In this document: positions 56,837-56,968 of the stretch, piece by piece | How the letters are laid out: every line of letters begins with the position of its first letter | Position numbering within the stretch: position 1 is the first letter of the stretch | DNA from: an uncultured archaeon | Lineage (GTDB): Archaea; Asgardarchaeota; Lokiarchaeia; Sigyniarchaeales; SOKP01 | DNA length: 64,000 nt | Reading direction: 5' to 3' | Assembly (NCBI GenBank): GCA_964388035.1 | Contig: CAYLZE010000006.1 | Coordinates: forward strand, 32,001 to 96,000 | Translations under genes and position numbers: made by a program | Notes under the pieces: generated by a model | What the model saw: the letters and a program-made list of their open reading frames with translations, nothing else | The model's database searches: none | What the model was told of the DNA's origin: nothing

Positions 56837-56968
56837 ATGAGAATCGTAAGAAAAGAAAAGATTGCCTACGCCACATGTAAATGTGGAGGGGATTGCTCCA
56901 GCATCCAAGCATGTAAGTGTGGTGGAGATTGCTCTGGTTTTTCGTGTAAATGTGGCGGGGATTGTTAA
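56837..56968 (+). CDS. 43-aa Cys-rich peptide with three CKCGGDC repeats (metallothionein-like or RiPP-precursor-like)
   Basis: MRIVRKEKIAYATCKCGGDCSSIQACKCGGDCSGFSCKCGGDC; repeats differ only at third codon positions; AAGGT upstream; T-tracts downstream. Confidence 0.85.
   Translation: MRIVRKEKIAYATCKCGGDCSSIQACKCGGDCSGFSCKCGGDC

Follow-up and report, generated by a model that had tools for sequence, protein, structure and literature searches.

A short peptide gene with repeated cysteine motifs

The 64,000-nt stretch of Asgard archaeal DNA analysed here (the window) carries a gene for a peptide of 43 amino acids (aa). The gene, its parts and the tract that follows it are:

56837..56968, plus strand: putative precursor peptide gene, 43 aa, ATG at 56837 to TAA at 56968, with homologues in related genomes
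56837..56875, plus strand: basic 13-aa leader without Cys, with a conserved M-x-I-x-K pattern and a predicted pairing with the maturase RRE
56876..56896, plus strand: core 1, CKCGGDC, a repeat with synonymous differences only
56912..56932, plus strand: core 2, CKCGGDC, a repeat with synonymous differences only
56945..56965, plus strand: core 3, CKCGGDC, directly 5' of the stop codon
56988..57008, plus strand: T-rich tract 3' of the stop codon, a probable archaeal terminator

An earlier note had picked out this open reading frame (ORF) with its three CKCGGDC repeats, and the coordinates, strand, nine Cys and 13-aa leader that it gave are all correct. Every Cys lies within the last 30 residues, and Cys makes up 21% of the peptide overall and 30% of its core region. 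The claim that the repeats differ only synonymously also holds. The codons are as quoted, and the four variable sites of the core-repeat DNA record at least five changes, all at silent third positions; given that 17.5% of single changes are silent, five silent changes out of five have a probability of ~1.6e-4. No CxCGGxC motif occurs outside the precursor in six frames of the whole 5.47-Mb genome. The T-rich tract recurs after the stop codon in homologues. Between the divergent wHTH gene and the precursor (55766-56836, ~1.07 kb) there are short ORFs only, including one of 54 codons at 56252-56416 on the minus strand. The wHTH gene itself has one distant match among related loci.

Homologues with the same leader and CKCGxxC cores are present in related genomes, including 11 of the 36 genomes from the same family. 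Two copies per genome were seen in two cases (G004, at L127 and L135; G401, at L310 and L315). The 43 distinct peptides consist of a short, conserved leader and a separate core, and the Cys-free leader is conserved across domains. All 77 cores have Cys3 and Cys7, which define the search pattern; Cys1 and Lys2 are each found in 76, and the three spacer positions are variable. The Asp of CKCGGDC, at core position 6, is found in 17 of the 77 cores and is therefore not conserved.

Neither the peptide nor its 20-aa relatives matched anything above cut-off in Pfam or NCBIfam, and the peptide had no match above 0.78 in the ESM Atlas. Most matches from a DNA pattern scan for a single core were due to chance, and the scan's hits in Thorarchaeota and Myxococcota do not represent this peptide; a peptide-profile match in genome G038 was spurious. 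One Myxococcota protein of 226 aa (L037:5971-6651) has Cys-Lys-Cys-Gly-type repeats behind a signal-like N-terminus and lies outside the precursor family.

The maturase and its co-occurrence with the peptide

The earlier note stated that no maturase lies in the window. This is true of the window, within which none was found for the peptide, and ceases to be true 2.2 kb past its end, where the first of three further genes begins:

C6:98231-99496 of this genome, G000 (L141:12232-13497), same strand and contig as the precursor: RRE-radical SAM-SPASM maturase, 421 aa
C6:99555-99803, same strand as the precursor: three-Cys accessory protein, 82 aa, directly after the enzyme
C6:99847-101364, same strand as the precursor: FAD oxidoreductase, optional, after the three-Cys gene

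The absence of a maturase from the window had led the earlier note to prefer a metallothionein, and that preference was therefore a window-edge effect. Beside several peptide homologues, the next gene on the same strand has ~420 codons and encodes a radical SAM enzyme; the maturase here shares 58% identity with the enzyme encoded next to homologous peptides (E 1e-168). In many relatives the precursor lies within ~1 kb of the enzyme gene, and across loci the distance ranges from ~100 bp to ~10 kb, with the two genes co-oriented or divergent. The present locus shows a split arrangement of precursor and enzyme operon, with the maturase gene 9.3 kb downstream of the precursor; this lack of adjacency is a caveat on reading the peptide as a RiPP precursor in this genome.

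Peptide and enzyme occur together throughout the class. In a survey of 161 genomes, the peptide was detected in 25 and the enzyme in 28. Every one of the 25 peptide-positive genomes encodes the enzyme (in one, only a piece at the end of a contig), and the peptide was absent from all 133 enzyme-negative genomes, counts in which related genomes are not independent and for which the peptide profiles were partly built from peptides beside the enzyme. The peptide was not found in three enzyme-positive genomes (G007, G015 and G023), which are fragmented assemblies of 390-720 contigs; in two of them the enzyme sits at a contig edge. In other Asgard classes we detected the enzyme in seven genomes and the peptide in four of the five tested. 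The homologue search and neighbour check for rSAM/SPASM genes that the earlier note proposed yielded homologues, with a dedicated RRE-rSAM-SPASM gene in every peptide-positive genome. That gene is on the same contig here, in agreement with the note's other option, a RiPP precursor made of a leader and repeated cores. In a genome of the same genus (G001), the maturase (L170:6288-7409) is interrupted near its N-terminus and the adjacent FAD gene is in pieces, as a result of a frameshift, decay or an assembly error.

Enzyme relatives with 28-35% identity are encoded in Nitrospirota, Thermodesulfobacteriota, Actinomycetota, Rokuibacteriota, Chloroflexota and two archaea filed under Methanobacteriota. 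An adjacent ~20-residue peptide that combines the same leader with a single CKCxxxC core is present at 18 of 24 non-Asgard loci and at none of 56 generic SPASM loci used as a control. Five further non-Asgard genomes were tested and all five encode the peptide elsewhere in the genome, against none of five control genomes. In a tree from which G066 was left out and in which row L236 is a different enzyme, the family enzymes group together as one clade (support 99/95). Two or three cores per peptide were seen in the Lokiarchaeia-type family of this genome alone (100/100); one member of this family has a single core and stands beside three-core forms in the tree. The widespread orthologues have a single core and three Cys. 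When 1.84 billion representatives were searched with a profile, ~55 candidate clusters came back at E 1e-57 or better. In two bacterial loci a second, different radical SAM enzyme adjoins the cassette (L225:1761-2762; L236:1947-2957).

The maturase has the hallmarks of a peptide-modifying radical SAM enzyme. It passes the cut-off of TIGR04085. Of 50 family enzymes, all have the three radical SAM Cys (CxxxCxxC) and 49-50 have each of seven SPASM Cys; there is no conserved eighth. Its model (pLDDT 88) shows an N-terminal domain of strands followed by helices, a radical SAM barrel and a SPASM domain. Among solved folds, those nearest to it belong to cross-linking enzymes: SuiB aligns from residue 7 (Z 26.1, rmsd 4.3, 375 residues aligned) and SkfB from residue 11 (Z 25.0, rmsd 5.5, 343 aligned), and given these starting points the fold match includes the RRE. 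A model of the leader-enzyme complex scored 0.74, a mark reached by 58 of 80 solved pairs and 2 of 110 mismatched pairs, against 0.00 for the best control. At least 43% of contacts were common to the runs, the partner pLDDT was 42, and modelled leader residues 1-13 lay on enzyme residues 30-41, 65-76 and 308-319. In the model, the leader adds a beta-strand to the maturase RRE, as CteA is described to do on CteB; this pass may reflect likeness, since similar complexes (CteA-CteB) are solved.

The three-Cys gene follows the enzyme closely. It is present in 29 of the 161 class genomes, including all 28 that are enzyme-positive, and adjoins the enzyme in other phyla too; in two bacteria the protein is fused to the enzyme N-terminus. 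The three Cys are invariant. Neither Pfam nor NCBIfam has a family above cut-off for this protein, and the ESM Atlas returned only unnamed clusters. A Foldseek search with its model (pLDDT 88) gave nothing at E 0.001, and the best fold match reached Z 3.7 (rmsd 5.1, 74 aligned), which is not proof of a new fold. On the evidence of the invariant Cys and the fusions, we conjecture that this protein may carry a metal or cluster on behalf of the enzyme. In some genomes its domain is found in tandem genes, in a two-domain protein or in a fusion with the maturase (L207:2771-3361 in G063; L167:8644-9084 in G060; L303 in G278; L214; L228).

Other neighbours are less constant. The FAD oxidoreductase is adjacent in seven loci, two of them outside Asgard archaea. 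A gene with an SRRTD motif, presumably DUF1848-like, lies near the maturase in five family genomes (L165, L171, L172, L175 and L178), and in four family genomes the gene after the cassette encodes a conserved membrane protein.

Promoter boxes in common with metal importers

The precursor promoter contains paired boxes that also precede metal importer genes:

56636..56662, plus strand: distal operator pair, TCATAC boxes 21 nt apart, best match to the cbiM-trained profile
56695..56721, plus strand: proximal operator pair, TCATAT boxes 21 nt apart, with an extra box at 56705
56742..56749, plus strand: archaeal TATA box, conserved in homologous promoters
46474..47326, minus strand: cbiM/nikM importer gene with its operator at 47326-47299, a probable co-regulated gene outside the biosynthetic set

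A TCATAY pair 21 nt apart is present in 20 of 21 family precursor promoters, and in 19 of the 21 a box lies 26 nt before the TATA box; here, the proximal box starts at this same distance. The full precursor operator pattern occurs once in the genome, at the precursor gene. The box is also found in all 28 cbiM promoters (background 14.7%), and the box pair in 16 of the 28, against 1 of 3739 background upstream regions. Here the boxes are upstream of the TATA box, while at many cbiM genes they sit next to it, which would predict that the two genes respond in opposite ways. We ranked the 4988 upstream regions of this genome with an operator profile trained on cbiM promoters from cassette-free genomes. 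It placed cbiM first and the precursor sixth, a result that is partly circular, as the seed of the profile was the box that precursor promoters had first revealed. The upstream region of the enzyme gene is without the operator (rank 3545 of 4988).

Ranks two and ten among the 4988 regions fell to a locus that encodes a divergent ZnuA-family binding protein together with FmdE, an ABC ATPase and a permease (L352:1000-4320; G000 C69) and that carries a strong operator copy. It is probably a second metal importer of the regulon. The operator was not seen in other Asgard families or in bacteria, and the metal link may be local to this genome's family, in which the precursor is probably expressed under the regulator of the nickel/cobalt importer. 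The cbiM gene lies within ~10 kb of the precursor here and in three relatives (L170, L173 and L174; 46474-49257 in the window). Its apparent start codon is ACG (47193-47191, minus strand), where relatives have ATT, ATA or TTG, before the HIPDG motif.

The genome encodes a NikR of 191 aa (L351:1108-1683; G000 C13) with a long His-rich insertion between its domains. The operator half-site is identical to that of enterobacterial NikR and the spacer has 14 nt, yet the orientation is reversed or direct (PMC545781, PMC7055735); a reversed arrangement has been predicted for D. psychrophila (PMC545781). Judged by these sequences, NikR is a candidate, and only a candidate, for the regulator of the precursor and the importers.

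Likely chemistry and role of the product

We conclude, with a probability of about 0.88, that the peptide is the precursor of a radical SAM RiPP system with the maturase and the three-Cys protein. The system would work like CteA/CteB and CrpA/CrpC, yet lies outside every curated family that we tested. CteB (SCIFF; PDB 5WGG, 5WHY) is likewise an RRE-rSAM-SPASM enzyme, acting on a Cys-rich precursor whose leader extends the RRE beta-sheet, and its auxiliary cluster I is open for a substrate Cys (PMC6231123). Identity with CteA/CteB is ~20%. The SCIFF maturase model TIGR03974 was absent from the best 25 matches of three relatives and reached 18.8 bits over the SPASM region, against a whole-protein cut-off of 425, and the peptides had no NCBIfam match to the SCIFF precursor model (TIGR03973). 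Unlike SCIFF systems, the one described here has a CKCxxxC core in one to three copies and a conserved three-Cys accessory protein, and its hosts are Asgard archaea and mostly anaerobic bacteria.

CrpC of Methanococcus voltae (TIGR04463) is an archaeal RRE-rSAM-SPASM enzyme with seven SPASM Cys and an auxiliary cluster I open for a substrate Cys; it installs thioethers on the repeated Cys motifs of CrpA, for which a metal-binding role has been suggested (PMC13692751). CrpA is a 29-kDa protein with C-X-X-Q/D motifs, whereas the substrates here have 20-43 aa and lack a conserved acidic or amide acceptor. Cys-directed radical SAM maturation is also known from PapA/PapB (freyrasin), SkfA/SkfB and StsA/StsB, and SkfB is similar in fold, RRE included. 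None of these family models reached its cut-off here. Three relatives scored 59-71 bits against the PapB model NF047865 (cut-off 340), and the PapB rule of Cys-to-Asp linkage is inapplicable here because Asp is not conserved. Relatives reached 67-73 bits against the StsB model (cut-off 625); StsA has CxC motifs with Gly acceptors (PMC10288494), and its type of hairpin motif is absent here. We also rejected the geopeptide system (TIGR04229/TIGR04280), as neither its peptide nor its maturase model was matched, and the selenobacteriocin system of SbtM (TIGR04082), whose maturase model gave 57.7 bits against a cut-off of 350 and whose Sec and GGUG motif are lacking.

By analogy with CteB, CrpC and SkfB, the seven-Cys SPASM domain would leave auxiliary cluster I short of one ligand and open for a substrate Cys. 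Seven-Cys SPASM domains serve non-thioether chemistry too. A three-gene system, split here with the precursor 9.3 kb upstream of the enzyme and accessory genes, could then operate as follows. The leader would dock on the maturase RRE as an added beta-strand, a core Cys would bind the open site of auxiliary cluster I, and a SAM-derived deoxyadenosyl radical would abstract a hydrogen from the core, the CKCxxxC units being modified one after another. By comparison with the related enzymes, the product is most likely a Cys thioether ring, for which we see slightly better than even odds. The acceptor would be the near-invariant Lys or a backbone carbon, given that the spacer residues vary and Asp is not conserved. 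The main alternative, possible but on the unlikely side, is a Cys-derived thiooxazole of the kind made by SbtM.

The promoter boxes suggest that the product may handle metal, since they also precede the cbiM nickel/cobalt importers. In this respect the metal idea of the earlier note survives in a weaker form: an operator common to metal importers speaks for it, while membership of a metallothionein family is not supported. We consider it possible, at a little short of even odds, that the product binds or buffers a transition metal. It is probably intracellular, because no protease or exporter is conserved among the cassette neighbours. A fuller and more tentative proposal is an intracellular nickel- or cobalt-binding peptide, produced under the regulator of a metal importer, in which the enzyme and three-Cys protein would turn each CKCxxxC into a chelator or a Cys-Lys link and the core would have been tripled for capacity; taken as a whole, this is doubtful.

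If the product does bind nickel or cobalt, anaerobes would have a further, new way of handling metal. Should the fuller proposal hold, the system would be the first Asgard RiPP to be characterised, and its product would be to modified peptides what metallothionein is to unmodified ones. No characterised Asgard RiPP was found in the searchable literature, and testing of archaeal radical SAM peptide chemistry has only just begun (PMC13692751, PMC12144867). Literature searches on the core motifs and on Asgard metallothioneins or RiPPs returned no description of the system, with most subscription papers and the supplements of PMC10288494 outside their reach. Neighbourhood-based mining may have missed it because gene callers usually skip the precursor and the enzyme can be distant. 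With a natural substrate of 20 residues in some genomes, a soluble enzyme and one accessory protein, the system offers a minimal test case, and bacterial orthologues should be easier to express. The shared operator is a rare functional clue, which most orphan radical SAM peptides lack.

A variant of the radical SAM RiPP reading is that the Cys become thiooxazoles and the product is a metal chelator with a bufferin-like role. Only Cys and Lys are conserved in the core, with no acceptor side chain; the SPASM enzyme SbtM converts Cys to thio(seleno)oxazoles (PMC9204691); metal binding is known for thiooxazole RiPPs (PMC11626156); and the precursor promoter carries the metal-importer operator. Products of the SbtM system and bufferins are, like the peptide proposed here, Cys-modified RiPPs, although bufferins are metal-stress metallophores that use MNIO enzymes and a Sec signal peptide. 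The score far under the SbtM-family cut-off, the missing GGUG motif and the cross-linking enzymes as closest solved folds make this variant rather unlikely.

The peptide could instead be a scaffold or carrier for a metal, an Fe-S centre or a small cofactor, which the three-Cys protein and the optional FAD enzyme would finish or load. This would fit the strict presence of the three-Cys protein with the enzyme, their fusion in two bacteria and the adjacent FAD gene at Asgard and non-Asgard loci. It is improbable, as no client enzyme is conserved near the cassette, and the FAD enzyme and the cassette do not keep the same company: several cassette genomes gave no match to the enzyme, and some genomes without a detected cassette have it.

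Still less probable is that the peptide is secreted as a bacteriocin-like agent or a signal and is processed by the CPBP/Abi protease encoded nearby. SCIFF ranthipeptides do act in quorum sensing (PMC8326336), and the protease gene (PF02517) is where the earlier note placed it, on the minus strand and ending 267 bp downstream of the precursor. Its proposed link to the peptide does not stand, however: the gene is convergent and not co-transcribed, 75 related loci were without a homologue, and the cassette neighbours include no protease or exporter that is conserved, so we rejected CPBP as a partner.

The least probable reading is the one that the earlier note favoured, a true metallothionein whose unmodified peptide would hold a three-metal cluster with nine free thiolates beside an incidental radical SAM gene: small size, nine Cys in 30 residues, CxC motifs and a probable metal-responsive promoter whose operator is common to cbiM and the ZnuA-family/FmdE/ABC locus recall metallothioneins (PF02069, eukaryotic 9-Cys domains), but there is no metallothionein profile match, the Cys-free leader is conserved across domains, one-core orthologues with three Cys are widespread and one is the tree neighbour of three-core forms, and wherever the peptide was detected the RRE-bearing maturase was there too.
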